A stretch of DNA of 64,000 nt from an uncultured Thermoplasmata archaeon (GCA_963696985.1 CAVOMG010000001.1:692737-756736), one strand, 5' to 3'. Positions 2,013-49,256 are shown, counted from the stretch's first letter. Numbers and translations: made by a program. The notes: generated by a model from the sequence alone, not told the origin.

Positions 2013-2091
2013 CCCGAACAAGTCCCGCCGACCTCCCGTTCCTCTCGAAACGAACGCTTATCTGCCGATCCCCGGTTTTTCGTCCGGGTCC

Positions 2092-2538
2092 ATGACGACG
2101 CACGAGGAACAGGCCCGGTTGCGTGAACATCTCGCCCAGCTCCGCATGGCCGCGCACGGGCTGGGGTCGGACTTCGAGGTCCGCTTCGAGGAGATCGGGT
2201 CGAAGATCGAACGCCTCCCGACGCTGACCGCTCGGGAAGCCAAGTACGCGCTCTACGAGATCGAGGACGACTTCTCGGCGATGGGGCACAAGGTCGACGT
2301 CGAGCTCAAGAAGCTTCCGCGCGAGATCGGCCATGGGATCGCGACCGGGGTCGAGGGGATCAAGACCGGGGCCACGCGGCTCGGCGAGGCGACCCGCGAC
2401 GGCATCGATGCCGTCGGGCACCGGACCGTCGAAGGGACCCGGAACGCCCTGGCGGCCGCGGCCGGGGTCCGCCGGACCCCGATGAAGCAGTGGTCCGACC
2501 CCGGCTCGGCGGCCGCGGCCCCCGACGAGGACCGCTAG
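2092..2538 (+). CDS. hypothetical protein (148 aa, predicted helical)
   Basis: Clean ORF with balanced composition and a TATA-like acgcttatct about 28 nt upstream. No family recognised. Confidence 0.6.
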   Translation: MTTHEEQARLREHLAQLRMAAHGLGSDFEVRFEEIGSKIERLPTLTAREAKYALYEIEDDFSAMGHKVDVELKKLPREIGHGIATGVEGIKTGATRLGEATRDGIDAVGHRTVEGTRNALAAAAGVRRTPMKQWSDPGSAAAAPDEDR

Positions 2539-3475
2539 GCCGAACGCGCCGCCCGCGCTCGGGCTCTTCGGGGAAGAGAGGCTGGGTTGTCCGGCTCGGC
2601 GCGCCGGGTCGCGCCGGCGCGCTCGAGCGACCGTACCGCCTCGGTGAGGTAGGTCGAGTCCACCTCGAACCCCGCGAAGGGGACGTCGACCCGCAGCGCC
2701 GCGACCGCCGAGCTTCCAATCCCGAGGAACGGGTCGACGGCGAGCCGGATCCGCTCGCGACCGTGGAGCCTCAGGCAGCGTTCGGGGAGCTCCGGGGGGA
2801 ACGAGGAGGGGTGCGGTCGGTCGGTGGAGCGATGCTTTATCGTCGGGTACGGGAGGAACCAGGTGTTGCCCCGGCAGCGGAGTCCGGAGCCTCCGCGGCC
2901 CCATCGGGTGACGTTGGACCGGTCCTGGTAGGGGACGCCGATCGCCAGGCGGTCCAACGGGACGTCGCCGTGGTGCGTGAAGTGGAAGATGTACTCGTGG
3001 GCCGAATTGAGGTAGCGGTCGGAGTTCACCGGTTTGTAGTGTCCGATCGCGAGGTCGCGCTCGAGGCCCGCGGCCCGGCCGACCAAGGCGCGTTCGATCG
3101 CGATCGACTTCACCCAGTGGATCACATTCTGGAGGACGAATCCTCGCCCGGCCGAGCGGGCGACCTCCCAGGGCCAGCCGGGGTCGCTCGGGGGCCCCCG
3201 AGGTTCAGGAAGAACGAGCCGTCATCGGCGAGGATCCGGGCCACGCCCCGGCCGACCCGCCCGGCCCATCGGAGGTATCCTGCGCCGGCCGGGCATCGTC
3301 GGTACTCGGAGTACCCGACCCCGAGGTTATACGGCGGGGAGGTGACGACCACGTCGACCGACCCCGACCCGAGCACCCGGGGGAGCGCCTCGAGTGCGTC
3401 GTGGTGCCAGAGGGTGATCGGGGTCCCCTGGGGGCCGACGAGTCGAGCGAACGGACGCTCCGCGGGTTCGGACAC
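2535..3475 (-). CDS. beta-class DNA methyltransferase (N4-cytosine or N6-adenine type, PF01555-like); frame broken in G5C5 run 3190-3199
   Basis: The N-terminal part (frame of ORF 3122..5137) has motif IV VDVVVTSPPYNLG. The C-terminal part (ORF 2535..3125) has motif I DPFLGIGSSAVAA. The two frames join as ...FFLNLGG/PPSDPGWPWEVARSAGRGFVLQNVIHWVKS across cgggggcccccg. GTG start at 3475, 18 nt after the ATPase stop. Confidence 0.8.
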
Positions 3476-3492
3476 GCTCGAAGAGGCGAACG

Positions 3493-5268
3493 CTACGCGG
3501 TCCCTTCGGCGGGGGTCGCGAACGTGCTCGCCTTCGGGGGCTTGCCGGACATCTCGGCCCGCGCCTCGGCGAGCGCCTCCTTCGGGTCCTTGTAGTAGAA
3601 CGCGACGATCCGGCCGACGTCCCGGTGGGTGAACGGGCTCTGGCGAGTGGCGCTGGCCTCGCGCCACTTCATGTACTCGAGCATCTCGACCCGGTTGCGG
3701 ACCTCGCGCTCCATCTCCTTCATCGTCCAGTTCTTCATGAGCGCGACCCGCTCGTAGATGTAGGAGTGGCCCGAGTAGAGGAAGGTGTCGTCGCCCGGGT
3801 CCCACGAATAGACCGAGTTCGTGATCAGCTCGTTCGTCTCGGGGTCGAGTCCGACGATCTCCGTGAGGCTCTGGACCCGGCGGGTCATCTTGGTCCCGAC
3901 CTTGACCTGGCGCTGGAGCAAGACGAGGTTGAGCGCGCTCACGAGCGACCTCGGGAGGGAGATCGGGGGGTTCTCCATCCGGTGGACCATCGCCGAGACG
4001 CTCTCGGCGTGGAAGGTCGTGTAGCACGTCTTCCCCGTGGCCATCGCCTGGAAGACGATGAACGCCTCGGCCCCCCGGACCTCTCCGACCATCAGGTACT
4101 GGGGGCGCTGCCGAAGCGCGGCCGCGAGCAGGTCGAACATGTCGATCTCGCCGGGGGCTTTCCCGCTCACCACGTTCTTCGCGCCGAAGCCGGCCCGGGT
4201 GAGCGAAGGCACCCAGTTCTCGTGGGGGAGGTTGAGCTCCCGGGTGTCCTCGATGGAGACGATCTTCATCTGGCTCGGGATGAACAGGAGCGTCGCGTTG
4301 AGCGTCGTGGTCTTCCCGCTCGCCGTCCCCCCGCAGACCATCATCGATTGCCCGCTCTCGATGGCGATCCACATGTACGCCATCATCTCCGGGCTCATCG
4401 TCTTGAACTTGAGGAGGTCGACCGGGGTGAACGGATTGTCCCGGAACCGCCGGATCGTGAACGAGCTCCCCCGCTTCGTCACGTGCATGCCGAGCGTCGC
4501 CTGGAGACGCGAGCCGTCCGGCATCGTCGCGTCGAGCATCGGGCTCGCGACCGAGATGTGCTTCCCCGACCGCTGGGCGATCCAGACGACGTAGTCGTCG
4601 ACCTGCTTCGAGTCGGTGAACTTGATGTTCGAGCGGATCGAGCCGAACTTCCGGTGGTAGATGTAGAGCGGGATCCCGACCCCGTCGCAGGAGATGTCCT
4701 CGACCTCGGAGTCGTGCATCGGGACCTCGACGATCCCGTAGCCGATGAACTCCCGCTCGAGGTAGTAGAGGAGGCGGCCCTTCGTGACCGGGCTCGGCGA
4801 GAGCTCCCAGGCGACGAGCTGGTCGTCGACCATCTTGCGGAGCTCGCGTCGCTTGGTCTCGGCGTCGAGTTCGGGGAGCGGCTGGAAGTGGTCGATCAGC
4901 GTGACCCGCAGCCGTTCGAGCAGCCCCTTCTCGATCGCGGACATCGGGGGTTCGATCACCTCGTAGAGGTACTCGTTCTTCCCGGTGTGGTAGGTCACTC
5001 GGATGTAGGAGAGGCCCTCCCGGATCGGGGCGAACTCGACCTCCTTGATCAGCGGGTCGTCGATCGGTGGGATCGGCGTGGGCGTGCCCTCGGCGCCCTG
5101 CCCGGAGACCCCGAGCCGGGCGAGGCGGACGGCCCACGGGCCGGTGGTGCCCCGGGAGAGGGCCGCGCCGATCTTGACGAGCGGGGAGAAGAACGCCTTC
5201 GGTCGCTCCCTCCGGGCGGGGATCGTCTCCTCCGGGGCTTCTGCGGGTTGCCTTGCTGCACTCGCCAT
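3493..5268 (-). CDS. type IV filament assembly ATPase (archaeal FlaI/PilB/TadA superfamily), copy 2
   Basis: Walker A VCGGTASGKTTTLN, Walker B/Asp box QYLMVGEVRG, His box TTFHA. The N-terminal domain is typical of archaeal secretion ATPases (YLYEVIEPPM). ATG at 5268 preceded by GGAGAAGG. The ORF-track extension to 6117 is junk. Confidence 0.9.
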   Translation of the reverse strand: MASAARQPAEAPEETIPARRERPKAFFSPLVKIGAALSRGTTGPWAVRLARLGVSGQGAEGTPTPIPPIDDPLIKEVEFAPIREGLSYIRVTYHTGKNEYLYEVIEPPMSAIEKGLLERLRVTLIDHFQPLPELDAETKRRELRKMVDDQLVAWELSPSPVTKGRLLYYLEREFIGYGIVEVPMHDSEVEDISCDGVGIPLYIYHRKFGSIRSNIKFTDSKQVDDYVVWIAQRSGKHISVASPMLDATMPDGSRLQATLGMHVTKRGSSFTIRRFRDNPFTPVDLLKFKTMSPEMMAYMWIAIESGQSMMVCGGTASGKTTTLNATLLFIPSQMKIVSIEDTRELNLPHENWVPSLTRAGFGAKNVVSGKAPGEIDMFDLLAAALRQRPQYLMVGEVRGAEAFIVFQAMATGKTCYTTFHAESVSAMVHRMENPPISLPRSLVSALNLVLLQRQVKVGTKMTRRVQSLTEIVGLDPETNELITNSVYSWDPGDDTFLYSGHSYIYERVALMKNWTMKEMEREVRNRVEMLEYMKWREASATRQSPFTHRDVGRIVAFYYKDPKEALAEARAEMSGKPPKASTFATPAEGTA

Positions 5269-5279
5269 CGAACCTTCTC

Positions 5280-6257
5280 CTACGTGGTGATCGGCGGGAC
5301 CACGAACCGCATGATGACCCAGCCGGAGATGAGCATGATCGTCGCGTGCTGGAACCCTTCGGGGTACTTGCCCGAGAAGAGGACCCCGGCCATGATCCCG
5401 TCCCCGATCGCGTGGACGATGACCGCGACGAGGAACGCGACGAAGAGCGCCGGGACCAGGGTGAAGGAGAGCGTGACGGCGCCGGCGCTCGAGAGGCTGC
5501 TCGAGGCGATCCCCTGGCCGGCGAGCACCATCTGCGGCAGGAAGACCGCCGCCATGATGTAGATCGTGACGAGGAAAACGAAGAACGAGATGTAGATGAC
5601 CGTCACGTAGGTCAGCATCGAGATCTTCCGGGCCGCGAGCTGGTTCTGGGCCTCTCGGGTGTCGTGGGCGACCATCGTCAGGACGTCCGCGACGTTCCCG
5701 CCGGCCTCGTTCGAGCGGGTGATGATCGAGACGACCCGCTGGACGAGGGGGGTCGGCACCCGCTCCTCGAAGAGCCTCAGGGCGGTGGCCACCGGCACGC
5801 CCCATTCGAGCTGGCTCGCCATCCGCTTGATCTCCTCGGTCAGGAGGCCGTAGCGCCCTCGCGAAGCGACGATGATGGCATCCGGGAGGGTCATCCCGAA
5901 TCGGCCGGCCTCGGCGACGTCGCGGAGGAAGTCGGGGAGCCGCTCCTCGATCTTGTCGATCCGACGGATGCGGGTGGTCTCCGCGAACCCGAACGGCCCG
6001 AGGAGCAGGATCGCGCCGAGGACGAAGAAGTCGATCGCCGGGTTCGCCCCGGTCGCCTCGCCGGGGGCGACCGGCGTCGAGATCGTCCCCGTGAGGTTGA
6101 GGACCGCGACCACCCACAAGGCGATGGCACCCGCGAGCCCGAGCAAGAGGATGAGGAGTTCCCGGCGGAGGTGGGAACGCTCGGTATCGTGGACCGCGAA
6201 GACCCCCTCACCGGAGAGCTTCTGGGCGGCGGTCGCCGGGGCGTTCACGGCGGCCAT
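5280..6257 (-). CDS. type IV filament membrane platform protein, single T2SSF domain (TadB/TadC- or EpdJ/K-like), second of two
   Basis: 325 aa. N-terminal TM segments, a cytoplasmic helical T2SSF-like domain (LPDFLRDVAEAGRFGMTLPDAI ... RSNEAGGNVADVL) and C-terminal TM segments. Directly abuts the upstream platform gene. Confidence 0.85.
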   Translation of the reverse strand: MAAVNAPATAAQKLSGEGVFAVHDTERSHLRRELLILLLGLAGAIALWVVAVLNLTGTISTPVAPGEATGANPAIDFFVLGAILLLGPFGFAETTRIRRIDKIEERLPDFLRDVAEAGRFGMTLPDAIIVASRGRYGLLTEEIKRMASQLEWGVPVATALRLFEERVPTPLVQRVVSIITRSNEAGGNVADVLTMVAHDTREAQNQLAARKISMLTYVTVIYISFFVFLVTIYIMAAVFLPQMVLAGQGIASSSLSSAGAVTLSFTLVPALFVAFLVAVIVHAIGDGIMAGVLFSGKYPEGFQHATIMLISGWVIMRFVVPPITT

Positions 6258-7241
6258 CTAGCTCTCCGAGGCGAGCGATTGCATGGGGATGATGAAGCCG
6301 ACCTGGGAGACCGGGATCATGACCCCGACGATCAGGTACATGACGAGGAGCATGAAGCTCCCGCCGCTCCCGATGATGGCGAAGATCGCGATGATGATCA
6401 CCAGGAAGAGGGGGAAGGCGACCACGACGGTGACGAACGTCTCGGCGAAGAGGCCCATCGTCTCGACGCGCCTCAGCGTCTCGAGCTTGTGCTCCTGCTC
6501 GAACTGCTCGGCCTTGAGCAGGAAGTACGGCTTGAGCTGGCCGCCGCTCGTCGCGGTCGTCACCACCCCCTGGAGGAACTCCTGCCAGCGCTTCGAGGGG
6601 GTCCGGGTCGCGCCGTCCTTGAGCGCGGTGAGGATGTCGACCCCCAGGAGCTCCGTGTCCCGGGTGATCCAGGCGGCCTCTTCCGCGACCTCCCCGTAGA
6701 TCTTCTGGCGGGCGAGCTCCCGGAAGATCTGGTCGATGTTCACGTCCGCCGAGGACATGGCGCTGACGAAGCTCATCGCCGAAGAGATCTTCGCGTCGAT
6801 CTTTCGACCCCGGGACTTCGCCGCCGAGGCGGGCTGGCCCTGCATCACGAGGAAGATCACCGGGGTCAGGGCGACCGGGAGGGCGATCCACACGAGCGCG
6901 CCCAGGGCCCAGGCCGGCAGGCCGGGGAGGAGCGAGCCGCTGAGGGAGAGCAAGGCGAAGAGGATCCCGCCGACGGCGATGAGCGCGATCCCGGCGACCA
7001 CCGCGGTGCCGTAGACCTGCGCGAGGTACTCGTCTCCGCGCATCCGGATGTGGGCCTTCGCGAGCGACTCCTCGAGAAGCGGGTTCGGCGGGGACCGAAG
7101 CACCCGGTGCCGGAAGGTCCTCCACGCCCAGCGTTGGAAGGGCGTCAGGGTCGAGAAGGTGGGCTGGGAGCCGCGCTTGACGCGGACCTGGCGGGCGCTC
7201 GAATCCTCGGCCGGGGCCGCCGGGGGGAGCTTCGCGGCCAT
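6258..7241 (-). CDS. type IV filament membrane platform protein, single T2SSF domain (TadB/TadC- or EpdJ/K-like), first of two
   Basis: Start taken at ATG 7241 (MAAKLPPAAP...), 2 nt after the TGA that would close the corrected ATPase frame. T2SSF-like core (AKISSAMSFVSAMSSADVNIDQIFRELA ... GGQLKPYFLLKAEQFE) plus TM segments. Confidence 0.85.
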   Translation of the reverse strand: MAAKLPPAAPAEDSSARQVRVKRGSQPTFSTLTPFQRWAWRTFRHRVLRSPPNPLLEESLAKAHIRMRGDEYLAQVYGTAVVAGIALIAVGGILFALLSLSGSLLPGLPAWALGALVWIALPVALTPVIFLVMQGQPASAAKSRGRKIDAKISSAMSFVSAMSSADVNIDQIFRELARQKIYGEVAEEAAWITRDTELLGVDILTALKDGATRTPSKRWQEFLQGVVTTATSGGQLKPYFLLKAEQFEQEHKLETLRRVETMGLFAETFVTVVVAFPLFLVIIIAIFAIIGSGGSFMLLVMYLIVGVMIPVSQVGFIIPMQSLASES

Positions 7242-7243
7242 CG

Positions 7244-8889
7244 TCAGCTCCCCTCCGGGGCGTCGGGGGCCCGGGGGTCCGGGACTTGAGCATCTCCGCG
7301 ACCCCTTGGGGATCCTTGTAGTAGGCGGTGATCGCCTTCCAAAGGGCCCGGTAGTCATTGATGTTGTTGAGGGCCAGGTAGTGGAGGACCGAGACGCGCC
7401 GCTCGAACTCGGCGTCCATCTCCTCCGTCGTGAGGTTCTTCAGTTCCATGATCTTGTCGAAGAGGAAGGAGTGTCCCTTGAACAGGAAGGTGTCCGTCCC
7501 GGGGTCCCACTCGTAGACGGTGTTGGTGATGAGCTCGTTGGTCTCGGGCTCGAAGCCGACGATCTCGAGGACCTGCTTGAGCCTCCGCACCACGCCCTTC
7601 TCGGTCCGGGCCTGGATCTGGATGATGACGTTGTTGAGGGCCGAGAGCAGGATCCTCGGCGTGTTGATGGGAGGGTTCTCGAGCCGGTTCACCATCGACT
7701 TCACGCTGTCCGCGTGCATCGTCGAATAGGTGGTGTGGCCGGTCGCCATCGCCTGGAACATCGTGTACGTCTCCTTCCCCCGCACCTCTCCGACGATGAT
7801 GTAGTTCGGGCGCTGCCGCAGAGCCGCCCGCACGAGGTCGAACATGTCGACCTCGCCCGCGGCCTTCCCGTCGGGGCCCCGATCCCCGGTCCCGCTGCGC
7901 GTCGCGCCCGGGATCCAGTTCTCGTGGGGAAGGTTCACCTCCCGGGTGTCCTCGATCGAGACGATCTTCGAGGTCGGCGGGATGAAGAGGGCGACCGCGT
8001 TGAGCGTGCTCGTCTTGCCGGAGGCGGGCCCCCCGCAGATGATCAGCGACTCGCCCTGCTCGGCCGCGAGCCATAGGTAGGCGATCATCTCCTCGCTCGC
8101 GCTCCCCGTGGTGATCAGGTCGACGGGGGTGAACGGGCGCTCCTTGAACCGTCGGATCGTGAAGCTCGCCCCGCGGGTCGTGATCTCCCGGGCGTAGGTC
8201 GCCTGGACCCGGTGGCCTTCCGGGGTCGTCCCGTCGAGGATCGGGGCGGAGACCGAGACGGCCTTCCCGCACCGCTGGCCCAGTGAGACGATGAACGAAT
8301 TGAGCGTGTCCTCGTCGTCGAAGATCACGTTGGTCTTGATCGACTCGTACTTCCCGTGGAAGACGAAGAGCGGGACGTTCACCCCGTCGCACGAGATGTC
8401 CTCGACCTCGGGGTCGTGGATCAAGGCGTCGACGGGGCCGTAGCCGACGAAGTCGCGCTGGATATAGTAGATCAGCCGCTCGACGGAGAGCGGTCCGATC
8501 GAGATCTCCCGGCTCTTGAGGTACTCTTCGACCTCTCCCCGGAGGTAGGCCCGCTTGTCGCTCAGGCTCATGTTCGCGACCTCCGGCCCCATGATCTGGG
8601 TCAGTGTGGCCTTCATGTGGTCCACGAGCTCGCGCTCGTGCGACGAGAGCTGCGGTTCGATCACCTCGTAGAGGTGCTCCTTGCGGATCTCGTTGTAGCT
8701 GATCCGGCCGTAGGAGTAGGGCGGCTGGATCGCCGTGACCTGCTGCTCCTTGACCTCGGGGCCGCCGAGCGGCGGCATCGCCGTGATGAACGTGCCGGGG
8801 AGGTCCCCGCTCTCGTCCGGGGTCGAGGGCGAGGAGGCGGTGGCCTCGGTCGTGCGGGGGATCTTGACCCGGAAGGACGACGCGCTCAC
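7244..8889 (-). CDS. type IV filament assembly ATPase (FlaI/PilB/TadA superfamily), copy 1; C-terminal frame broken in C5/G3/C5 run 7264-7283
   Basis: Walker A ICGGPASGKTSTLN, Walker B NYIIVGEVRG, His box STMHA. The uninterrupted 893-aa ORF reads through into junk. A 1-nt correction in the homopolymers gives ...AEMLKSRTP.APDAPEGS* ending at TGA 7244-7246, which resembles the copy-2 C-terminus ...ATPAEGTA*. Confidence 0.85.
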
Positions 8890-8896
8890 AGGACCC

Positions 8897-9852
8897 CTAT
8901 TCCGTCCCCACCCCGATGACGAGGCGGACCTCGGCGTAGATCAGCGTGAACGAGGCGAGCTTGTTGAAGGTGAGCTTGAACGGGTAGCTCGAGGTGATCG
9001 GGGTCGCGCAGCTCGCCGGCGCCGTCGTGGTGACGTGGCTCGGGGAGGCCGTGAATCCCGGCGGGGCCTGGGCGAAGGTGCTCGCCACGAACGACGCCCA
9101 GGCGCAGGGATAGAACGTCCCCTCGATGAGCTGGGCGGCCAACACGTTCGTGGAGCTCGTGCTCGTGAACGTCTCGGTGAACACGAAGTGGCTGAAGATC
9201 TCCTGGGTGCCGATACCGGTGGCCTGGGTGGAGATCCCGGTGACCTCGACCAGGGTCTCGGTCACCCCATACCCCGAGCCCGTCTGGTTCACCGTGAGCG
9301 TTGGGGGGAACTCCACGAGCTGCTGGCCCGTTCCCTCCTGTTGGATCACGGCGTCGTTCTCGAGGGAGAACGTCTGGGGGGAGTAGTAGCGAGAAGGGAT
9401 ACTGACCTGAAGGGTCCCCATGCTGACGTTCTCGTAGAACAGGGTCCCGGCCGAGGTCGAGCCGGGGCCGGCTTCACCGAGACGTTCGAGTAGATCCCGC
9501 TGCCGGGGCTCGGCGGGATGAGGGTGATCGCGGCGCCCGTGGGCTGGGCGATCAGGGGAATGCTCTGGGATGCCATTGGGAACGGGGTCGCGAGGACCGC
9601 CAGCCCGCCGGAGAGGGCCTGGCTGTCGATCCCCACCTTCAGGTTCGCCAGAGCGGTCTGGACCTGGCTCGTAAGGGACTGTTCGTTCTCGCTCATCCAG
9701 AGCGGGACATACTGCGTCAGGAAGACCCCGAACAGGGCGAAGAAGACGAGCAGGGCGAGCAGAGTGCCCACCACGGAAACCACGGCTCGGGAACGGCGTC
9801 GCAGACTCCTACGGAAGCGGCGGCGCCGCCGCCCCGTGGAGGTACCTTGCAT
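8897..9852 (-). CDS. pilin-like protein with N-terminal hydrophobic (class III signal peptide-like) helix; frame broken near 9455-9475
   Basis: N-terminal part (ORF 9346..9852): RRRSRAVVSVVGTLLALLVFFALFGVF..., then a helix (NEQSLTSQVQTALANL) like that of the 525-aa pilin-like protein. After ...GIYSNVSV this frame becomes junk. The frame of ORF 8897..9421 continues (GSTSAGTLFYENVSMGTLQVSIP...) across ccggggccgg. Confidence 0.65.
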
Positions 9853-10111
9853 CGAGAGCCGTCCCTGGTGAAAGCCACCAGGATAGTAATCCTAGTTGGC
9901 TTCGGATATAAACGCTCTCATTCTGGGGGCTTCTTCCGGAGGACTCGTCCCTATCCGAGCGGGTCGCCCGCGGATTGGACCGGGCGGGCGATTCCCCCCA
10001 CCCAACCCCGGATGCTGGGAGGATGCGCGGACGGGCCCCGCCGGGCGGAACCGACCGCACCAGTGGGGGGCCCGCGCTTCCGTCCCTGGTCCGGGACAGT
10101 GGGGCGGGCGA

Positions 10112-10987
10112 TCAGGTGACCGTGAACGCGATTGCGTAGGTTGATTTCTGACCGTTGGCGTCGGTGGCGGTCAGGAAGAAGTAGTACGTCGTGGCCGATC
10201 CGGGGTTCGGGGAGGTGAGGGGGCTTGAGGTGTCGTTGTAATAATACAGGCCGCTCGACCCACTTCCGGTCATCGCGTGGCTCACCGCTCCCGAGGACTC
10301 CGAGAGGTTGACCTTCACGGAGTCTCCCGAGCTCGAGCCGAACTCGACGACGGCCGAGAGGTTGAACTTGTACGAAGCCGCCGGTCCGATGGTGCTCGGG
10401 GTCAAGGTCACCGAGGAGAAGTAGGGCGCGGCGCTCGGCACCAGGGCGAAGATCGTCTCCCGGAAGTCGAGGAGGTCGTGGACGACGATCGAGACCGTCA
10501 GGTTGTCCGGGGAGGTGAGACTGTAGGAGGCGAGGCTGACGTTCCACGTCTGGTCGAAGCCCCAGATCGAGGCCCCGCCCAGTCCGGCCGCCAGAGTGAA
10601 CGGACTCGGGATGGCGGCTGGGTGCTTCTGGGAGACGATGTAGACGGCGGCCTGGGACGTGCTGGAACCCGTCAGGACGGTCCCGGAGAGGTGGGTGATC
10701 GCTATCCCCGTCACCTGGAGGCCTCCGGACCCTCCGTAGGTGAGGGCCACGGTGAACTGGGTCAACACCTGCGGTTGGGCGGTCGGGTTATGGCTCGTGA
10801 AGATGAAGATCGAGGCGAAGAGGGTGATCGTCATCCCAAGGAGGAGGATCGTGGCGACGACCTCTGAGACGCCCCGCCGACGTTCCCGGCGCCAGCCGCG
10901 GCCGCGATGCGAGATCACGCCACCCTCCCATACCGGCGGTTCGGAGCGCTCCCGCCCATCCTGATGGTTGAAATGCCGGAGAATCAT
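10112..10987 (-). CDS. archaeal type IV pilin-like protein (DUF1628-type N-terminus), paralog B
   Basis: Class III signal peptide RRRG/VSEVVATILLLGMTITLFASIF. Shares a middle module (IVSQKHPAAIPSPFTLAAGLGG ... DNLTVSIV) and a C-terminal module (TYYFFLTATDANG...) with 11080-11964 and 14617-16410. Several N-x-S/T sequons. Confidence 0.8.
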   Translation of the reverse strand: MILRHFNHQDGRERSEPPVWEGGVISHRGRGWRRERRRGVSEVVATILLLGMTITLFASIFIFTSHNPTAQPQVLTQFTVALTYGGSGGLQVTGIAITHLSGTVLTGSSTSQAAVYIVSQKHPAAIPSPFTLAAGLGGASIWGFDQTWNVSLASYSLTSPDNLTVSIVVHDLLDFRETIFALVPSAAPYFSSVTLTPSTIGPAASYKFNLSAVVEFGSSSGDSVKVNLSESSGAVSHAMTGSGSSGLYYYNDTSSPLTSPNPGSATTYYFFLTATDANGQKSTYAIAFTVT

Positions 10988-11028
10988 ACTTATACCTTCC
11001 TCGGACGGGGTGGACCCCGGGTGACGGC

Positions 11029-11058
11029 GAGTTGGCCGGGGCGCGCCGGGGCCAACTC
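11029..11058. repeat. 30-nt inverted repeat (9-bp stem GAGTTGGCC/GGCCAACTC) between the two tandem pilin paralogs
   Basis: gagttggcc-ggggcgcgccgg-ggccaactc, located in the 92-nt gap between stop 11080 and start 10987. Confidence 0.5.
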
Positions 11059-11079
11059 GGGCCCGTTCGGCTGGGCCGT

Positions 11080-11964
11080 CTAAGAGACCACCAGGGGCAG
11101 CGAAACGACCGTGACCCGGTTGTTGCCGTCGGTCGCGGTCATGAAGAGGTAGTAGGTCGTCGGCGACGAGGGGGAGGGGGTCGTTCCCGAGTAGGTGTAG
11201 GTCGTTCCGGCGGAGAGCGTCATCGCATGGAGCCCACCCGACGGAAACTCCGTGGTGTTGATCGTGACCGTGTTCCCGGAACCGGAGGCGAACGTCACGT
11301 GGACCGAGACGGTGAAAGCGGTCGCCCCGCCGATCGCCCCGGAGGGGGTCACGTGGACCGTCCCGAAGTACGGGGCGAACGTCGCGATCGAGACGAGAAG
11401 GGTCGACTCGTATTCGAGCTGGCCCGAGGCGATGACCGAGACGGTCAGATTGTCCGGCGCGGTGATCCCGTAGGTGGAGAGGTTCTTCGTCCAGGTCTGC
11501 CCGAAACTCCAGACCGTCGCGCTCATCGGGAGTCCCTGGGCGAGGGTGAAGGGATTGGGGATGGCGGCCGGGTGCTTCTGGGAGACGATGTAGATCGAAG
11601 CCTGGGAGGAGGAGGCTCCGGAGATCGTCGTACCCGAGAGGTGGAGGATCGAGATCCCGCTGACCGAACTGCCGCTATAGCTCACGGAAGCGTCGAACTG
11701 GTTCAGGGGTTGGGGGCCCGGCTTCGGGAGGTCGCGGTTGATGAAGAAAAATATCGCGCCGAACAGGATCACCGTGATCGAGAGGAGCATCATGGTCGCC
11801 ACGATCGTGGAGACCCCCCGGGAACGGGGTCGACGACGGTGGCGCCTCGGAATCGGAGAGGGGTCCTGGAAGAGGCTTATCGCGCGCATTCCCCCGACCG
11901 AGGTTATCATGCCGGGGGGCCGTACATAGACATTCCCACTATCACTACCCGCCCTCCGATCCAC
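11080..11964 (-). CDS. archaeal type IV pilin-like protein (DUF1628-type N-terminus), paralog A
   Basis: RSRG/VSTIVATMMLLSITVILFGAIF class III signal peptide and the same modules as paralog B (IVSQKHPAAIPNPFTLAQGL; TYYLFMTATDGNN). The true start may be an internal ATG (11910 or 11889). Confidence 0.8.
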   Translation of the reverse strand: MDRRAGSDSGNVYVRPPGMITSVGGMRAISLFQDPSPIPRRHRRRPRSRGVSTIVATMMLLSITVILFGAIFFFINRDLPKPGPQPLNQFDASVSYSGSSVSGISILHLSGTTISGASSSQASIYIVSQKHPAAIPNPFTLAQGLPMSATVWSFGQTWTKNLSTYGITAPDNLTVSVIASGQLEYESTLLVSIATFAPYFGTVHVTPSGAIGGATAFTVSVHVTFASGSGNTVTINTTEFPSGGLHAMTLSAGTTYTYSGTTPSPSSPTTYYLFMTATDGNNRVTVVSLPLVVS

Positions 11965-12007
11965 CGACCTCCAGGGCGGTCCGCTTGGGCGCGTGCTGTT
12001 CCGAGTC

Positions 12008-13585
12008 CTACTGGACCGAGATCTGGACCGTCGCGAACGTGACGGCCATCGATTGGATGTTGAGCGGGATCAAGAGCGACACGATGTCCCCGGCGGGAGG
12101 GTTCGTGCAGCTGTAGGGGGAGGCGATCGAGGCCGCCGAGTAGCATCCGATCGTGCCGTTCAGGACCGCCGGAGGAAGGGCGTCGAAATAGGAGAGCCAG
12201 GCCCCCGGGTACGCCGTCGTCACGTTCAGGGCCGGATCCTCGAAGAGCTGGTTGCCGTTGACCGTCACGGGGAAGTTCGACCGGAGCACCGACTCGGAGA
12301 CGAGCTGGGTCACGATCGCCGCCGTCGAGTATCCGCTCGCGGTCAGGAAGGAGCTCTCGACGAAGGTGATCAGGGTGAGCCGGGCGGTGTTCCCGGCGGA
12401 GCTGACCGTGAAGTTGAACGCGGGGGGATCGATGAGGACCGAACCGCTCGACTGACCCGCGATCACGGCCCCGTCCTCGAGCGAGAGCGTCTCCGCGCCG
12501 ATGTAATGGTTCTGAAGCCCGACCGAGAGGCTCCCGGCGCCGGCGAAGAAGGGGGCGAACAACCCGGTCGGTCCGGTCCCACCGAACGCGCAGAATGAAG
12601 GCAGGGCGGCCCTGGAGATATTCTGCCACGTCAACGCGGGGCCACCCGCCGGAGTGAAGGAGTGGGTGTTGCTCGTGCCGACGGAGTTGTAGAAGTTGAG
12701 GGCCTGCGTATTGCCCGAGCTGCTGACCGAGAGCTTTCCGACCTTGTCGGTCGAAGCGAGGTTGTTGTACGGGCACCCGGTAGATCCTTGTGGTTCCTTC
12801 TCGCCGATGAACCGGGTCACCACGGTGGCGCCCTTCCCGTTGAACTTCGAACCATACTGGTAGGTGTCGTTGGACCCGTAGAGGTTGAAGTTCAAGGTGG
12901 AGCCACTCCCGCCCTCCCAGTTCACGGTCAGCACGTCGTGGCTCCCATACAAGGTGAAGTTCAACGGGGGGACCATGTTGTTGTCCGTGATGTTGAGGGT
13001 GATGCTGTTGAAGTCGCCGGTGACATTCATCACCGGGCAGGAGCCCGAGTTCCCCGTGATCAGGAAGAAGTAGGATTGGTGGCTCAGCGTGACGTTCCAG
13101 GTTTGGGACGGGGTGCAGCCGTTCACGTCGAACGTGCACGTCGTCCGGTTCCCGGAGATGACGATGCCGCCATCGCACAGCCCGCCGGTGCCGTTCGCCG
13201 GTCCCGCCTTGATGGTCTCCGCGATCAGCCGCGTGCCGTCGCCCGAAGGGAGCAACGCCAGTTGGCCGCTCGCGGCAGGACCGAAGGGAGGGATGGGCGC
13301 CGAACCGAGGCTGATGGGGGCGCTCAGGACCGAACGGACGTGCGGGGAGGCCACCTCCGTCAGGATATCGTTCTGGAGCGCCCCGAACTGATTCTCGACC
13401 TGGATCAGGTGTTGCAACTCAGCGTTCTGCTCTTCCGTCGGCAATGGAGCGATCGCCAATTCCGCGATCAGGGAGACGACGATCAGTAACCCAAAGAGCG
13501 TGGCCACGGCGGCGACCTGGCCCCGCCGGTCGAGGCTCCACCGACGGCGGGCCGAACGAACCGACCGGGCGCCCAATTGCCGCAT
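12008..13585 (-). CDS. large pilin-like protein (525 aa) with class III signal peptide, Cys- and sequon-rich
   Basis: DRRG/QVAAVATLFGLLIVVSLIA (Gly at -1, Gln at +1). The extracellular part has about 10 Cys and many N-x-S/T sites. First gene of the leftward operon, with a TATA-like box ~27 nt upstream. Confidence 0.75.
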   Translation of the reverse strand: MRQLGARSVRSARRRWSLDRRGQVAAVATLFGLLIVVSLIAELAIAPLPTEEQNAELQHLIQVENQFGALQNDILTEVASPHVRSVLSAPISLGSAPIPPFGPAASGQLALLPSGDGTRLIAETIKAGPANGTGGLCDGGIVISGNRTTCTFDVNGCTPSQTWNVTLSHQSYFFLITGNSGSCPVMNVTGDFNSITLNITDNNMVPPLNFTLYGSHDVLTVNWEGGSGSTLNFNLYGSNDTYQYGSKFNGKGATVVTRFIGEKEPQGSTGCPYNNLASTDKVGKLSVSSSGNTQALNFYNSVGTSNTHSFTPAGGPALTWQNISRAALPSFCAFGGTGPTGLFAPFFAGAGSLSVGLQNHYIGAETLSLEDGAVIAGQSSGSVLIDPPAFNFTVSSAGNTARLTLITFVESSFLTASGYSTAAIVTQLVSESVLRSNFPVTVNGNQLFEDPALNVTTAYPGAWLSYFDALPPAVLNGTIGCYSAASIASPYSCTNPPAGDIVSLLIPLNIQSMAVTFATVQISVQ

Positions 13586-13612
13586 CTCTCGTCGTTTCTA
13601 GCTCGGAAAGCG

Positions 13613-13621
13613 TATTTATAT
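13613..13621 (-). promoter_or_regulatory. TATA-like box for the leftward pilus operon
   Basis: On the minus strand, atataaata lies 27 nt upstream of the ATG at 13585. This fits a leaderless or very short-leader archaeal promoter. Confidence 0.45.
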
Positions 13622-13825
13622 GTGGTGGAACCGGCCCATCGACTTCGCTCAGGGCCGGGCGCTTTCGGGAGTCTCTCCGCTCCAAACGGGGTCCCGCTTC
13701 GACCGGCGGGGCGCCCCATCCGGTTCATTCGCCTTCGATCCCGTCCGATCCGGGCTGTCTGGCCCCCCGCTCTCCACGGGTCGAATCGCACCCGCGCAGC
13801 CCCGTCCGGACTCGGCCGAAGGGGC

Positions 13826-13835
13826 ATATCTTTAT
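13826..13835 (+). promoter_or_regulatory. TATA-like box for the rightward pilin genes
   Basis: atatctttat ends 28 nt upstream of the ATG at 13863. Confidence 0.45.
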
Positions 13836-13862
13836 GGTGAGTTCCCGACGTTCTCATACTAG

Positions 13863-14597
13863 ATGGGTATTCATGCGCACCGCTGGCGCCGCGGCCCCCA
13901 CTCTCGGAACGGAGTCTCCGGCATCATCGCCACCATCCTGCTCGTCGCCATTACGATCATTGCGGTGGTCGTCCTCGCGGTCTTCCGTCCGGCCCTGAAC
14001 CAACCGCCCCCGACCATTGACTACGTGGTGAAGGGCGGACTCTCCGAGCAGGCGTGGAGCGACCCGACGGATTGCAGCAACACCACCCAATACGCCCACT
14101 GCAACGCCCTGCCCGCGATCTTCGTCCTCATCAACGGATACTCCCCCTCCTACCTCTCACTCGCCCAGCTCAACCTGATCGTCGTCTGCAACGGGACCGA
14201 CCTCATCGATGCGAGCCTCCAGAACCTTGAGGTGATCCCGGGATCGGGGGCGTCTCCTCCGGCCAACGCCCCGCAGATCGGCAACTGTGGGACCTGGTCG
14301 TGGGGCCAGGGCGGCAACGGCGCCTTCACGGGGACGTACTTCAATCGGCTCCTCTACTACCAGCAGTACACCCCCGGGGCGGCAGGCGTCGCCCAGGGGG
14401 ATGTCCTGGTGATCTTCGCGCACCCGGCGAACGACTTCTGCGACTATTCGGGGAACTGCCCGGACGACGACTACCACGGGGCGCCGTTGTGGTGCTTTAA
14501 CGTCCCCGGAGCGTGCAATGTCTACCTCACCTACTCGAGCGGTTCGACGAACGACCTCGTGATGAGCTTCTCCCTGTACGGCTTGAGCCGTCAATGA
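13863..14597 (+). CDS. archaeal type IV pilin-like protein (DUF1628-type N-terminus), Cys-rich
   Basis: SRNG/VSGIIATILLVAITIIAVVVLAVF class III signal peptide. 10 Cys in the globular part (DCSNTTQYAHCN, GNCGTW, FCDYSGNCPDDD, WCFNVPGACN). Confidence 0.8.
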   Translation: MGIHAHRWRRGPHSRNGVSGIIATILLVAITIIAVVVLAVFRPALNQPPPTIDYVVKGGLSEQAWSDPTDCSNTTQYAHCNALPAIFVLINGYSPSYLSLAQLNLIVVCNGTDLIDASLQNLEVIPGSGASPPANAPQIGNCGTWSWGQGGNGAFTGTYFNRLLYYQQYTPGAAGVAQGDVLVIFAHPANDFCDYSGNCPDDDYHGAPLWCFNVPGACNVYLTYSSGSTNDLVMSFSLYGLSRQ

Positions 14598-14616
14598 TCC
14601 GCGGCCGCTCTCGACG

Positions 14617-16410
14617 ATGGGACCGGCGCCCGCGCCCAAGGGCGACCCCTGGAGGGGTCCCGTGACGCGGGTTCTAGGGCCATCGACCGCGCGACGTCGC
14701 CGTCGACGCCCTCTCCGTCACGAGCTGGGGGTCCAGGACGTCGTCGGGACGATCATCATCCTGGCGATCGCGGTGGTCCTGGCGGGGATCGTCACGCTCT
14801 GGGTGAACACCTACCCCATACAGAATGCCAACCGGACGGACCTCTTCTCGGTCAATCTGACCTACGGAGGCTCTACTTGCGTGCTCGGCTGCGGGTCCGG
14901 TCACCCCACGACCGCGCCCTCCATGAGTGGGATCAAGATCGAGCTCCTTGCCGGCCCTCGGATCGTGGGGGTCTCTACGACCCAATCCTCGGTGCGGCTG
15001 GCCTCCCAGCAGGTTCCTTCAGCTTTCACGAGCCCGTTCACTCTGGGCGCCGGCCTCGGGGGGTCGCCGAGCTGGTCGCCCGGCCAGACCTGGTCGCTCA
15101 ACCTGACCCACTTCGGGATCCCCTACTACGACAACCTGACGATCATCGTCGATTCGAGCAATGAGGTCGTGATGAACTCCGTGGTTCCCGGGCCGAACCC
15201 GTTGAGCCCACCCTACTTCAGCACAGCGTCGGCCATCCCGAATCCCGTGGCCCCCGGGTCCAAGATCAACATCTCTGCGACGATCGTCGCCCCGGATGGG
15301 CTCAACACCTCGAAGCCGCCCGCGACGGTGTTCGCGAACCTGACCGAGATCAACATCAACGGGGCGAACAAGGCGGTCGCCCAGATCGGCGTCAGCACGA
15401 ACCCCGACGGCATCGCGGCCGACACCTCGAACGGCTACGTCTACGTCGCGGACGCCGGGTCCTCAAGGGTCTCGGTGTTCAACGCGACCTCCTACGCCAC
15501 CGTCGGCAGCATCACCGTCCACACCCACCCCCAGGGCGTCGCGTACGACGGGACCGACTCGGAGATCTTCGTGACGAACAACGGTTCGGCCAGTGTCTCG
15601 GTCATCAGGGACTCGAACGACCACGTCGTGGCCACCATCACGGTCGGGACCGACCCGGACGCCGTCGCGTTCGACGCCTTGAATGGGGAGGTGTACGTCG
15701 CCAACTACGGGTCGAACTCGGTCTCGGTGATCACCCCTTCGAACAACCACGTCCTGACCACGATCACCGTCGGCACGCACCCCTCGGGGATCGCGTTCGA
15801 CGGCGCGAACGGCAACCTGTACGTCACGAACCAGGGCAGCAACACGGTCTCCGTGATCAACGGCGCGACGAACGCCGTCACCTCCACGGTCACCGTCGGT
15901 ACCCAGCCCCTCGGGGCGGGGTTCGACGCGGCGAACGGCGACATCTACGTGACCAACGTGGCCGCCAACACGGTCTCGGTGATCAGCGGGGGATCCGGGA
16001 CCGTGATCGCCACCGTCCACACCGGCAAGGCCCCGGAAGCGGCCACTTGGGCGAGCTCGACCGGGGACGTCTACGTCGCCGATTACTCCCAAAACAACGT
16101 GACGATCATCAACGGGAGCTCGAACCACGTGCTCGGCTCGATCAACGTGGGCACCGAGCCGGACGCGATCACCTTCGACGCCGTGAACCAGACCGTGTTC
16201 ACCGCGAACTACGGGTCCAACAACGTCACGGCGATCACGACGACGAACCTGCTCGTCGTGTCGCTCAGCTACTCCACCTCGTCCGGGAGCTGGTATGTCG
16301 ACTTCACCCTCCCGGCGGCCACGCCCGCCGGGACGTACTATGTCTTCCTGACCGCCGTCGACAACATCGGCCTGACGGCGCAGGTCTCGGTCCCCGTGGT
16401 CGTCTCGTAA
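14617..16410 (+). CDS. pilin-like protein fused to a YVTN-type seven-bladed beta-propeller
   Basis: HELG/VQDVVGTIIILAIAVVLAGIV signal peptide. Has the paralog middle module (SQQVPSAFTSPFTLGAGLGG ... DNLTIIV), then seven ~41-aa repeats (P.G.A.D...G.VYV.N.GSN.VSVI), then the shared C-terminal module (TYYVFLTAVDNIG...VVVS). Confidence 0.85.
   Translation: MGPAPAPKGDPWRGPVTRVLGPSTARRRRRRPLRHELGVQDVVGTIIILAIAVVLAGIVTLWVNTYPIQNANRTDLFSVNLTYGGSTCVLGCGSGHPTTAPSMSGIKIELLAGPRIVGVSTTQSSVRLASQQVPSAFTSPFTLGAGLGGSPSWSPGQTWSLNLTHFGIPYYDNLTIIVDSSNEVVMNSVVPGPNPLSPPYFSTASAIPNPVAPGSKINISATIVAPDGLNTSKPPATVFANLTEININGANKAVAQIGVSTNPDGIAADTSNGYVYVADAGSSRVSVFNATSYATVGSITVHTHPQGVAYDGTDSEIFVTNNGSASVSVIRDSNDHVVATITVGTDPDAVAFDALNGEVYVANYGSNSVSVITPSNNHVLTTITVGTHPSGIAFDGANGNLYVTNQGSNTVSVINGATNAVTSTVTVGTQPLGAGFDAANGDIYVTNVAANTVSVISGGSGTVIATVHTGKAPEAATWASSTGDVYVADYSQNNVTIINGSSNHVLGSINVGTEPDAITFDAVNQTVFTANYGSNNVTAITTTNLLVVSLSYSTSSGSWYVDFTLPAATPAGTYYVFLTAVDNIGLTAQVSVPVVVS
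15388..16248 (+). repeat. seven tandem ~41-aa YVTN-family beta-propeller blade repeats (coding)
   Basis: Periodic motif seen directly: GVAYDGTDSEIFVTNNGSASVSVI / AVAFDALNGEVYVANYGSNSVSVI / GIAFDGANGNLYVTNQGSNTVSVI / GAGFDAANGDIYVTNVAANTVSVI, and further blades. Confidence 0.75.
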
Positions 16411-16532
16411 AGCCGCCCGCGGGAAGGTGCCGGCGGGGAAGCCCGGGCCCCGGTCCCGGGTCCAGGGCGATGCGGGCCCCTTCCTCGGGTCCGCTAGCCT
16501 ATTGGGCCCGAGGGCGTGACCCGAGACGGACG

Positions 16533-17021
16533 ATGGCGCTCCTCGAGATCGGTCTTCGGGTCCAGAACCGTCCTGGCGAACTCACCCGGGTGGCTCGGAT
16601 CCTCGCCCAGGAGCGGATCAACCTCGCGGCGATCTCGGTCGATTCGAGCGGGAAGCGCGGTCATGTCCGGGTCATCGTCAATCGCCCGGATCGGGCGGTG
16701 GGCCTTCTGACCGCCGCGGGGTTCGAGGTCGAGAGCCGGGAGCTCATCGCCGTCCACTTGAGCGATGAGGCCGGCAGCTTCCTCCGGGTCCTCGACCTCC
16801 TCGCCAATGCCAAGATCAACGTGTTGAGCGTCGCGATCCTGGTCGCCCGCGAAGGCGCCCAGAGCCTCGTCGCGCTCTCGACGTCCGATATCCGCAAGGC
16901 CCGCCGGGTGCTCGAACGGGCGGGCGTCCTCTCGGAGAACGCCGAGCAGATCGCCTCGAACGCGGACCTTCTCGCCTACGCCCCCAGCATCCCCTCGGAA
17001 TCCGTCGGCCTCCTGATGTGA
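16533..17021 (+). CDS. ACT domain-containing protein (two ACT-like repeats)
   Basis: MALLEIGLRVQNRPGELTRVARILAQERINLAAISV... and a second half (IAVHLSDEAGSFLRVLDLLANAKINVLSVAI) match the ACT fold pattern. ATG at 16533; the upstream part of ORF 16047 is junk. Confidence 0.7.
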   Translation: MALLEIGLRVQNRPGELTRVARILAQERINLAAISVDSSGKRGHVRVIVNRPDRAVGLLTAAGFEVESRELIAVHLSDEAGSFLRVLDLLANAKINVLSVAILVAREGAQSLVALSTSDIRKARRVLERAGVLSENAEQIASNADLLAYAPSIPSESVGLLM

Positions 17022-17067: not shown

Positions 17068-17139
17068 GCGGTTGTGGTCTAGCGGTTAGGACGGTAGCTT
17101 CCCAAGCTACCTACTCGGGTTCAAATCCCGACAACCGCA
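17068..17139 (+). tRNA. tRNA-Gly (anticodon CCC)
   Basis: Hand-folded cloverleaf: acceptor GCGGTTG/CAACCGC, D arm GTCT-AGCGGTTA-GGAC, anticodon arm GTAGC-TTCCCAA-GCTAC, T arm TCGGG-TTCAAAT-CCCGA, discriminator A. No encoded CCA. Confidence 0.9.
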
Positions 17140-17191
17140 CTTCGGCGAATCTCCCAAGGAGGGCGGCGGCCCCATCCCCCGTTAGGCCGCG

Positions 17192-18121
17192 ATGCCGGCG
17201 CCTCCGGGCCCGATACCTGCCTCCGGCCGGCCGTCGGTTCTTTACCCCCGCAGGGGGGTCATACGTCTCGTGGACAGCTCCGTCGAACGGGTCGAGCTGA
17301 GCGACTTCGCCCAGTGGCGCGTCGCGACCGAGAGCCAGCTCCGCCACCACCTTCGGACCTATCGGTTCCTCGGGCTCGTGGCGTTCATCGTGGGGATCGC
17401 GCTCGCGACCCTCGCCTTCGAGTTCCATGCCGGCGCGGCGCTGGTTCGCTTCAGCGAGCTCCACTCCGCCTCCGAGTACCTGAGCGATTTCCTCGTCTAT
17501 TCGGGGCTGATCGTCGTCCTCGCCGCGGCCTTCTTCGGAGGGGATGCGCTCAGCCAGGACTTCGCCTCCGGCACGGGGTACTTCACCCTCGTCCAGCCGG
17601 TCCACCGCTCCGTCCTCCTCGCGGGACGCTACGCCTCCGCGACGCTCGCCTCGGTGGTGGTCGTGGGGGCGTACTTCCTGATCGCGGTCCTCGGAGCGAT
17701 CGCCTTCTTCCCCGCCTCGACCCTCCCTTGGGGGCTCCTCGGGGTCTCCTTCGGCCTCGCCCTCCTCTACACCCTCTCGGCGCTCGCGGTCGCCTTCACG
17801 TTGAGCGCCTTCATCCGGACCCCGGCGATCGGTGTCCTCGTCACGGTGCTCGTCCTCTATGTCGGGTTCGCCACGGTCCAGAGCGTCGCGGAGCTCGGGG
17901 GCCTCGAGCCGTGGTGGTCGTTCACCTATGCCGGCGGAGCGATCGCGGCCGTGCTCGACATCGACTTCGCCCACTTCCAGTCGATCCCGGTCGGCCAGAA
18001 CGAGACCCTGACCGCGTGGACCGCCTCTCCAAGCGAGGGCGCGGTCGTGATGCTCGTCTACCTGTTCGTCTTCCTCGGGCTCAGCATCTACCTCTACGAG
18101 ACCAAGGAGTCGACGGGGTAG
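17192..18121 (+). CDS. ABC-2 type transporter permease
   Basis: 309 aa with about six predicted TM segments. Immediately followed (3-nt gap) by an ABC ATPase. Confidence 0.7.
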   Translation: MPAPPGPIPASGRPSVLYPRRGVIRLVDSSVERVELSDFAQWRVATESQLRHHLRTYRFLGLVAFIVGIALATLAFEFHAGAALVRFSELHSASEYLSDFLVYSGLIVVLAAAFFGGDALSQDFASGTGYFTLVQPVHRSVLLAGRYASATLASVVVVGAYFLIAVLGAIAFFPASTLPWGLLGVSFGLALLYTLSALAVAFTLSAFIRTPAIGVLVTVLVLYVGFATVQSVAELGGLEPWWSFTYAGGAIAAVLDIDFAHFQSIPVGQNETLTAWTASPSEGAVVMLVYLFVFLGLSIYLYETKESTG

Positions 18122-18123
18122 CG

Positions 18124-19059: not shown

Positions 19060-19075
19060 TGCTGGAACGCCCACC

Positions 19076-49110: not shown

Positions 49111-49182
49111 GGGCGAGGTTCACCGCCCCACGTCGCCCCCACTCCGGGGGATGGCTCGAGTCGCCTACTCGAAAGGTTCGGG

Positions 49183-49256
49183 TGCGGGCACCGGGATTTG
49201 AACCCGAGTTATAGGCTTGGCAAGCCTATGTGATAACCAGACTACACTATGCCCGC
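49183..49256 (-). tRNA. tRNA-Gly (anticodon GCC)
   Basis: Acceptor GCGGGCA/TGCCCGC, anticodon arm TAGGC-TTGCCAA-GCCTA, T arm TCGGG-TTCAAAT-CCCGG, discriminator A. Confidence 0.9.

Follow-up and report, generated by a model that had tools for sequence, protein, structure and literature searches.

Why should the assembly locus of an archaeal type IV filament carry two complete motor ATPases? The question is raised by positions 3,493 to 16,410 of a 64,000-nucleotide (nt) stretch of DNA from an uncultured Thermoplasmata archaeon (GCA_963696985.1, CAVOMG010000001.1:692737-756736), which we refer to as the window and in which two secretion ATPase genes flank a pair of small platform genes and are accompanied by pilin-like genes. 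A sequence-only reading had described this locus as an Epd/Tad-like filament system with an unusual second ATPase. We propose that it encodes the assembly machinery and the accessory pilins of an adhesive type IV pilus of the kind made by Cuniculiplasma divulgatum (the CdiP pilus), here in an uncultured, high-GC, Lutacidiplasmatales-like soil Thermoplasmata, and judging from sequence we give this reading a probability of roughly 0.8. The pairing of the ATPases is real, but the two-ATPase, split-platform design is already known: it was tabulated in 2016 (Makarova 2016, PMC4858521) and described experimentally in 2025 (PMC12448462). The window represents no new kind of system, and the question of the second motor's job is unchanged by it; what is new here is how widespread and how old the arrangement is, together with the accessory genes of this lineage.

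One platform in two pieces

The core of the locus consists of four genes on the minus strand, in which ATPase-1 and ATPase-2 lie on either side of two genes, plat1 and plat2, each encoding a single T2SSF domain:

3493-5268, minus strand: ATPase-2, 591 amino acids (aa), FlaI/GspE-type secretion ATPase, in the same position as CdiPE2
5280-6257, minus strand: plat2, 325 aa, single T2SSF domain, homolog of CdiPFb
6258-7241, minus strand: plat1, 327 aa, single T2SSF domain, homolog of CdiPFa
about 7244-8889, minus strand: ATPase-1, about 550 aa once corrected, PilB3-like FlaI/GspE-type ATPase, in the same position as CdiPE1

Translations and profile searches bore out the gene order as first described, including two pilin genes that diverge rightward, and the order ATPase-1, plat1, plat2, ATPase-2 was kept in 67 of 67 related Thermoplasmata loci (those with at least 3.7 kb of sequence upstream).

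The two platform proteins match the T2SSF profile (E = 6e-13 for plat1 and 1.7e-19 for plat2) and are 24% identical to each other. On the ArlJ profile plat1 covers positions 44-244 of 555 and plat2 positions 316-536; on UpsF they cover 62-241 and 288-471 of 484. Across the ArlJ, UpsF and BasF profiles the N-terminal half is matched only by plat1 and the C-terminal half only by plat2. Both proteins also align over their full length with the divided C. divulgatum platform, the sequences of which were taken from the supplement of PMC12448462: plat1 with CdiPFa (36% identity, E = 5e-43) and plat2 with CdiPFb (32% identity, E = 1e-39). Since plat1 and plat2 are complementary halves of a platform, we regard the locus as one machine, in which two motors work with a single platform made in two pieces, and not as two systems. 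That the split might be an assembly error was considered and rejected: the same split is seen in the 67 loci and in Cuniculiplasma, and is tabulated for Aciduliprofundum (PMC4858521), so that the two platform genes are genuine, as they had been taken to be.

These results bear directly on the idea that two pilus systems, each with one ATPase and one platform gene, simply lie side by side. Such an origin would agree with the placement of the two Aciduliprofundum ATPases in different Clade 2 sub-branches, and with the frequent duplication of the ATPase/TadC module in euryarchaeal Clade 2 systems (PMC4858521). Yet plat1 and plat2 do not amount to two complete platforms, a tandemly repeated unit of ATPase and platform would not give the order E1, Fa, Fb, E2, this order does not vary among the 67 loci, and the genes are separated by 0-12 nt and stand under one conserved TATA box. 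We consider it very improbable that two neighbouring systems account for the locus.

Two intact and probably specialised ATPases

ATPase-1 and ATPase-2 are 49% identical over 506 aa, in agreement with the earlier impression of related yet diverged copies. Both match the T2SSE profile (E = 3.2e-33 for ATPase-1 and 6.6e-34 for ATPase-2), and the nucleotide-binding and catalytic motifs are all in place: Walker A (GGPASGKTS / GGTASGKTT in the pair), the Asp box (SIEDTRE in both), Walker B (YIIVGEVRG / YLMVGEVRG) and the His box (STMHA / TTFHA). The best match of both in the PDB is AfGspE (1.4e-123 for ATPase-1, 6.5e-116 for ATPase-2), with FlaI at 1e-81 and 3e-86, respectively; ATPase-1 matches CpaF (1e-45) and PilT (about 1e-9) more weakly. 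Both proteins fall below the cutoff of the TadA model (143 and 149 bits, cutoff 373) and of the FlaI equivalog NF058587 (401 and 417 bits, cutoff 550); the latter result, together with the absence of accessory genes from the locus, upholds the earlier statement that this is not an archaellum. Orthologs carry the PilB3_N and PilB3_C domains (PF23989, PF23990). By indirect evidence, namely these domains, the AfGspE matches and the Clade 2 label borne by the Aciduliprofundum ATPases that occur in the same order, we assign the ATPases to the Clade 2/PilB3-AfGspE type.

A PilT-like identity was rejected for both copies. Members of that family were defined by pilT_fam (TIGR01420) and by a compact size of about 350 aa without a long N-terminal domain; ATPase-1 and ATPase-2 score 39.8 and 46.5 bits, where the cutoff is 319, are 550-591 aa long, and retain the long N-terminal domain, their alignments with AfGspE beginning at residue 35-54. 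Two other candidate markers were discarded. An insertion of about 9 aa after the Asp box, absent from AfGspE and FlaI, was considered as a sign of recent duplication, but it is also found in single-ATPase relatives within the Thermoplasmatota and is uninformative; PF27713 (UCP018868), considered as a marker of ATPase-2, was a weak precomputed match on the orthologs, did not appear in our own Pfam scans and also occurs on the upstream copy of Cuniculiplasma.

The second, full-length ATPase is real, is intact by motif and is kept together with ATPase-1 in all 67 loci, and neither copy is lost or degenerate across the relatives: all four motifs are intact in 81/81 ATPase-2 sequences, while among the ATPase-1 orthologs Walker A is intact in 64/66 and the Asp box and Walker B in 65/66. 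Pairwise ratios of nonsynonymous to synonymous substitution (dN/dS) lie between 0.06 and 0.28 for ATPase-1 and between 0.05 and 0.26 for ATPase-2, and between the window and its relatives they are 0.08-0.10 for both. Judged by their motifs both ATPases look catalytically competent; the dN/dS values show purifying selection on both, to an equal degree, and because the two motors are equally constrained we argue that the second has an essential role. The two families share 184 invariant sites and differ at 72 sites that are fixed differently between the paralogs, many of which adjoin Walker B and the His box; this pattern points to specialisation of the ATPases and not to redundancy.

One form that such specialisation could take is an extension motor paired with a retraction motor, in which case one of the two, ATPase-2 or ATPase-1, would have taken up filament disassembly on a route separate from that of bacterial PilT. 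In favour of this, two active-looking paralogs share one platform and are always retained together, the sites fixed differently in the two are clustered around the active site, and archaea are without PilT. On the other hand, neither copy is PilT-like in score or in domain layout; no twitching was seen in C. divulgatum, which has the same design (PMC12448462); and a second motor is not needed for retraction in archaea, given that Sulfolobus Aap pili are reported to retract with a single ATPase (PMC11178785). An extension and retraction pair therefore seems to us rather unlikely. We give the same low standing to an obligate mixed hexamer, or stacked pair of rings, in which both paralogs would form a single motor. 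Such an assembly would suit two paralogs that are strictly retained together, are equally constrained and stand at either side of the platform genes in a single tight operon; against it, no secretion ATPase of this family is known to be hetero-hexameric.

An old pair, probably retained across distant Thermoplasmatota

When genomes were scanned with ATPase-2, 80 loci with 76-93% identity were recovered, one of them named as Candidatus Lutacidiplasmatales, and ATPase-1 returned more than 120 cluster representatives at 77-92% identity, of which all the named ones are Thermoplasmata metagenome-assembled genomes (MAGs). No sampled genome of the window lineage had just one of the two ATPases. A search among representatives gave no full-length match closer than about 50% to ATPase-2, in a collection whose clustering at 50% may merge both paralog families. 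When a relative of ATPase-2 with 51% identity (about 57% if a 49-aa internal gap is excluded) was used as seed, a second large clade was recovered, made of proteins of about 603 aa. Two of its loci on long contigs, L084 and L085, have the same five genes as the window, in a lineage whose ATPase-2 proteins are just 57-63% identical. In both (L084 13296-17924, minus strand; L085 11961-17450, minus strand) a giant CARDB/Zn-ribbon protein of 1500-1800 aa is encoded on the opposite strand directly after ATPase-2, in the place taken in the window by a methyltransferase gene; Aciduliprofundum MAR08-339 has an equivalent of it (arCOG01917), and outside the window lineage this giant may be a conserved companion to the pilus block.

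The block is also present in a Cuniculiplasma MAG (locus L086), which encodes an ATPase of 525 aa, T2SSF proteins of 323 and 284 aa and an ATPase of 528 aa in this order. Synteny of the ATPase-platform-platform-ATPase block, one of the checks proposed at the outset, thus extends beyond the 67 loci to L084, L085 and Cuniculiplasma. In L086 a tyrosine integrase and about 15 tiny open reading frames (ORFs) lie immediately upstream of the CdiPE1 homolog, and a group II intron reverse transcriptase lies downstream (3300-6980 and 17465-19276); the upstream cluster may be an integrated element.

To place the copies, we constructed a neighbour-joining tree (100 bootstraps) of the window pair, their orthologs, representatives of the 50%-identity clusters, AfGspE and FlaI. 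Across the window lineage and the L084/L085 lineage, the upstream ATPases formed one clade and the downstream ATPases another, each with 100% bootstrap. An earlier tree had shown ATPase-1 and ATPase-2 as sisters, a grouping that was lost after taxa were added. In reciprocal BLAST comparisons of the Cuniculiplasma copies, E1 scores 409-442 bits against ATPase-1 types and 382-398 against ATPase-2 types, and E2 scores 389-429 bits against ATPase-2 types and 350-372 against ATPase-1 types. As to near relatives with other arrangements, Thermoplasmata HGW-1 has a single ATPase with two T2SSF genes and KaiC-like genes, and another near-relative ATPase stands alone.

From the two ortholog clades, the duplication is older than the split between the window lineage and the L084/L085 lineage; by gene position and by the pattern of scores it probably also predates Cuniculiplasma and Aciduliprofundum. 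This suggests that the design is not an oddity of one species and looks like an old module found across distant Thermoplasmatota, in the window lineage, in the L084/L085 lineage, in Cuniculiplasma and, according to published tables, in Aciduliprofundum. One practical consequence is that many natural sequence variants are on hand for testing the role of the second ATPase.

Comparison with known filament systems

The closest described counterpart is the pilus of C. divulgatum, the structure of which has been solved (PDB 8REY; ISME J 2025, PMC12448462). Its machinery has CdiPE1 and CdiPE2 as ATPases and a platform divided between CdiPFa and CdiPFb; its pili are adhesive and end in thin hooks; and the gene for its major pilin is found about 500 kb away from the machinery. 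The authors raised extension and retraction as possible roles, and they called the operon unique and the second ATPase enigmatic (PMC12448462). The window resembles this system in having two FlaI/AapE-type ATPases and separate genes for the N-half and the C-half of the platform, and both organisms belong to the Thermoplasmatota. The differences are these: (i) the window ATPases are just 38-43% identical to the Cuniculiplasma pair; (ii) the machinery in the window is adjoined by six large pilin-like genes, one of them with a beta-propeller, and by a DNA methyltransferase gene; (iii) the window organism belongs to a different order, is high in GC and comes from soil. The Lutacidiplasmatales genome paper does not mention pili.

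The gene block has a precedent in Aciduliprofundum. For strain MAR08-339 the published table lists an arCOG02911 pilin (305 aa), an ATPase (545 aa), two TadC proteins (332 and 290 aa), an ATPase (550 aa) and a Zn-ribbon giant, with both ATPases labelled Clade 2; the presence of two distinct ATPases in one locus was noted in the main text, and two tadC-like genes are reported for many Clade 2 euryarchaeal systems (Makarova 2016, PMC4858521). Compared through that table, the Clade 2 locus of A. boonei and MAR08-339 and the window have an identical five-gene block; Aciduliprofundum differs in having the Zn-ribbon giant downstream and in lacking the methyltransferase. Euryarchaeal Clade 2 type IV pili such as PilB3/PilC3 of Haloferax volcanii, and AfGspE of Archaeoglobus (PDB 2oap), resemble the window in ATPase family and in DUF1628 pilins, but those systems have one ATPase per module, whereas the window has two.

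The label Epd/Tad-like did not hold. Two single-T2SSF-domain platform genes are indeed a feature shared with Epd of Methanococcus (EpdJ/EpdK) and with Tad/Flp (TadB/TadC). Nevertheless, CpaF is a distant match beside AfGspE, the TadA model is not reached, the pilins are long DUF1628-type proteins of 244-597 aa in contrast to the approximately 70 aa of Epd/Tad pilins, no EppA, KaiC/FlaH- or TadZ-like partner was found within 2.5-16.4 kb (for FlaH/KaiC as first noted), and Epd/Tad systems have one ATPase against two here; on the ATPase side the comparison covered CpaF and the TadA model. Bacterial type IVa pili offer a different parallel, with several paralogous hexameric ATPases (PilB, PilT, PilU) acting on one platform, although in the window neither ATPase is in the PilT family and both have the full FlaI/GspE-type N-terminal domain.

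The pilin genes

Six genes in the locus encode pilin-like proteins, each of which shows, in its translation, a basic stretch followed by G or A and then by about 20 hydrophobic residues:

8897-9852, minus strand: pilin-like gene immediately upstream of ATPase-1, frameshifted in the window
10112-10987, minus strand: DUF1628 (Pilin_N) pilin paralog, ORF of at most 291 aa
11080-11964, minus strand: DUF1628 (Pilin_N) pilin paralog, ORF of at most 294 aa
12008-13585, minus strand: large pilin-like protein, 525 aa, no Pfam match
13863-14597, plus strand: divergent pilin, 244 aa, Pilin_N
14617-16410, plus strand: propeller-bearing pilin, 597 aa, with an NHL/YVTN beta-propeller insert, candidate adhesin

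The pilin-like gene next to ATPase-1 has a homolog in 65/65 loci with room for it, measures about 313 aa in the relatives and occupies the position of the arCOG02911 pilin of Aciduliprofundum. The two paralogs upstream of it match Pilin_N with E = 3e-08 (10112-10987, which also matches arch_flag_Nterm; motif RG|VSEVVATILLL) and 1.1e-07 (11080-11964; motif RG|VSTIVATMMLL). The 525-aa protein has a class-III-type signal, RRG|QVAAVATLFGLL, is 68% identical to a 526-aa protein in the related locus L001 and shows weak paralogy to the 313-aa pilin-like protein. On the other strand, the 244-aa pilin matches Pilin_N (3.3e-05) and arch_flag_Nterm and is 78% identical to its L001 homolog. The 597-aa protein has Pilin_N at aa 38-76, NHL repeats (2.5e-18) from aa 262 and YVTN repeats (4e-53, best stretch aa 398-437), so that the propeller is an insert, with the pilin N-terminus before it and the C-terminal part behind it; the homolog of this pilin in the closest relative (L001/L003) has 286 aa and no propeller, and the propeller is likely an adhesin module of recent gain. 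Searches of the PDB with the pilins gave no useful match.

A model for the two motors, and what weighs against it

By analogy with the archaeal type IV pili that have been studied, the prepilins, with their class-III signal peptides, would be cut by a prepilin peptidase encoded elsewhere, and a platform composed of two half-size proteins, plat1 corresponding to the N-half and plat2 to the C-half, would then lift the pilins from the membrane, with hexameric cytoplasmic FlaI/GspE-type ATPases powering the lifting. We prefer the view that the two ATPases are separate motors which act on the same platform and divide the labour between them. One of them might, for instance, prime the filament and assemble its tip from the large minor pilins, while the other polymerised a major pilin encoded elsewhere. 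Because the pili of C. divulgatum are hooked and six large pilins are encoded here, a division between tip or hook and shaft is an attractive guess. The stronger proposition, that the second ATPase is an anciently fixed, PilT-independent specialist motor which either disassembles pili or builds their distal part or hook from large minor pilins while the other ATPase polymerises the shaft, is one that we put forward tentatively and hold to be doubtful; if it were true, a type IV filament machine with two motors would have arisen in the Thermoplasmatota independently of bacteria.

Several observations weigh against assigning the locus to a CdiP-type pilus. (i) The phylogeny suggested for the ATPases delivered its two ortholog clades, but the deep nodes of the neighbour-joining tree have a support of 2-45%, and neither the sisterhood of the paralogs nor the placement of Cuniculiplasma is resolved. 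(ii) One-to-one orthology with CdiPE1 and CdiPE2 leans on modest differences in BLAST score. (iii) Six-frame motif scans of the 64 kb, a weak test, found no small CdiPB-like or further DUF1628 pilin and no A24 prepilin peptidase signature, the latter in line with the sequence-only reading; a window without a small major pilin gene nonetheless fits C. divulgatum, since the major pilin gene is remote there too. (iv) The loss of the ATPase-1 stop codon and the broken pilin-like gene could, if they are real mutations, mean that the window holds a decaying copy of the locus.

Frame breaks in a GC-rich sequence

The last of these points can be examined in the sequence, which has a GC content of about 65-70% in this region. 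As written, the ATPase-1 frame has no stop codon and continues for 893 codons through plat1, to 6208. A TGA at 7244-7246, 2 nt before the plat1 ATG, is in the +1 frame relative to ATPase-1, and runs of C5, G3, C5, C4 and G4 lie just upstream of it, at 7250-7281. The loss of a single base in these runs would account for the break; the restored ATPase-1 would have about 550 aa and the tail "...KSRTPGPPDAPEGS*", the same ending that is shared by the ATPase-1 proteins of the relatives (526-574 aa). In tblastn comparisons, the intact 313-aa L001 homolog matches the pilin-like gene 8897-9852 in two frames, with the shift near 9451-9472, and the intact 329-aa L001 protein matches the methyltransferase gene in two frames, with the shift near 3170-3197.

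Three frame disruptions within 7 kb would suit a decaying cluster of pseudogenes, in which ATPase-1, the pilin-like gene and the methyltransferase would be truly broken. Nevertheless, the vWA gene, which is unrelated and not part of the locus, has a break of the same kind at about 1658 (1657-1659), and a codon-phase scan revealed about five further unexplained phase changes elsewhere in the window (candidates near 26.6k, 45.8k, 48.2k and 52.1k). The breaks whose position could be resolved, among them the 1-nt gap in the methyltransferase and the ATPase-1 region, are in G/C homopolymer runs, similar split matches are seen in long-read MAG loci of the same lineage, and the low dN/dS between the window and its relatives applies to both ATPases. 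Decay of the locus is in our judgement quite unlikely, and the frame breaks are probably insertions or deletions of the assembly or long-read consensus, which would affect every gene call in the window.

Predicted promoters, methyltransferase and flanking genes

Three further features belong to the transcription and the downstream edge of the locus:

9906-9912, minus strand: TATA-box-like TTTATAT, predicted promoter of the core operon
13612-13621, no strand assigned: TATA-like element between the divergent genes, with the ATG of the 525-aa gene about 27 nt away, predicted promoter
2535-3481, minus strand: N6/N4 DNA methyltransferase (PF01555), about 12 nt downstream of ATPase-2, frameshifted in the window

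The heptamer TTTATAT occurs at two sites in the 64 kb, against 0.11 expected, and both (9906-9912 and 13615-13621) are in intergenic regions of the locus, each preceded by a GAGAGCG/GAAAGCG-like stretch that may be a B recognition element (BRE). Most of the related loci have TTTATA 60-73 nt upstream of the pilin-like gene, and a TATA-like match is present in 64/66. The leftward genes had been taken for a single operon; for the core block this probably stands, its genes being tightly spaced under the conserved TATA box, but the leftward genes as a whole are probably organised in at least two transcription units. From the TATA boxes and the spacing, the core unit probably comprises the pilin-like gene, ATPase-1, plat1, plat2 and ATPase-2 and, in this lineage, the methyltransferase, while the three pilin genes upstream are probably under a separate promoter.

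The methyltransferase gene lies within 400 nt of ATPase-2 in 70/71 loci of the window lineage and is absent from L084, L085 and L086; it is lineage-specific and probably co-transcribed with the pilus core. No restriction partner for it was seen, and any link between the methyltransferase and the pilus, for instance through DNA uptake, is pure speculation. Beyond it, window 1-2538 (plus strand), where a PrkA-like AAA gene ends and where a vWA gene and a 148-aa gene lie, is syntenic with L001; gene order around the locus is thus generally conserved in this lineage, which weakens any functional reading of neighbour conservation alone. On the other side of the locus, an ACT-domain gene (about 16530-17018) follows the last pilin gene, and just past it lies the first of two tRNA-Gly genes (17068-17140, plus strand, and 49180-49257, minus strand), with anticodons CCC and GCC.

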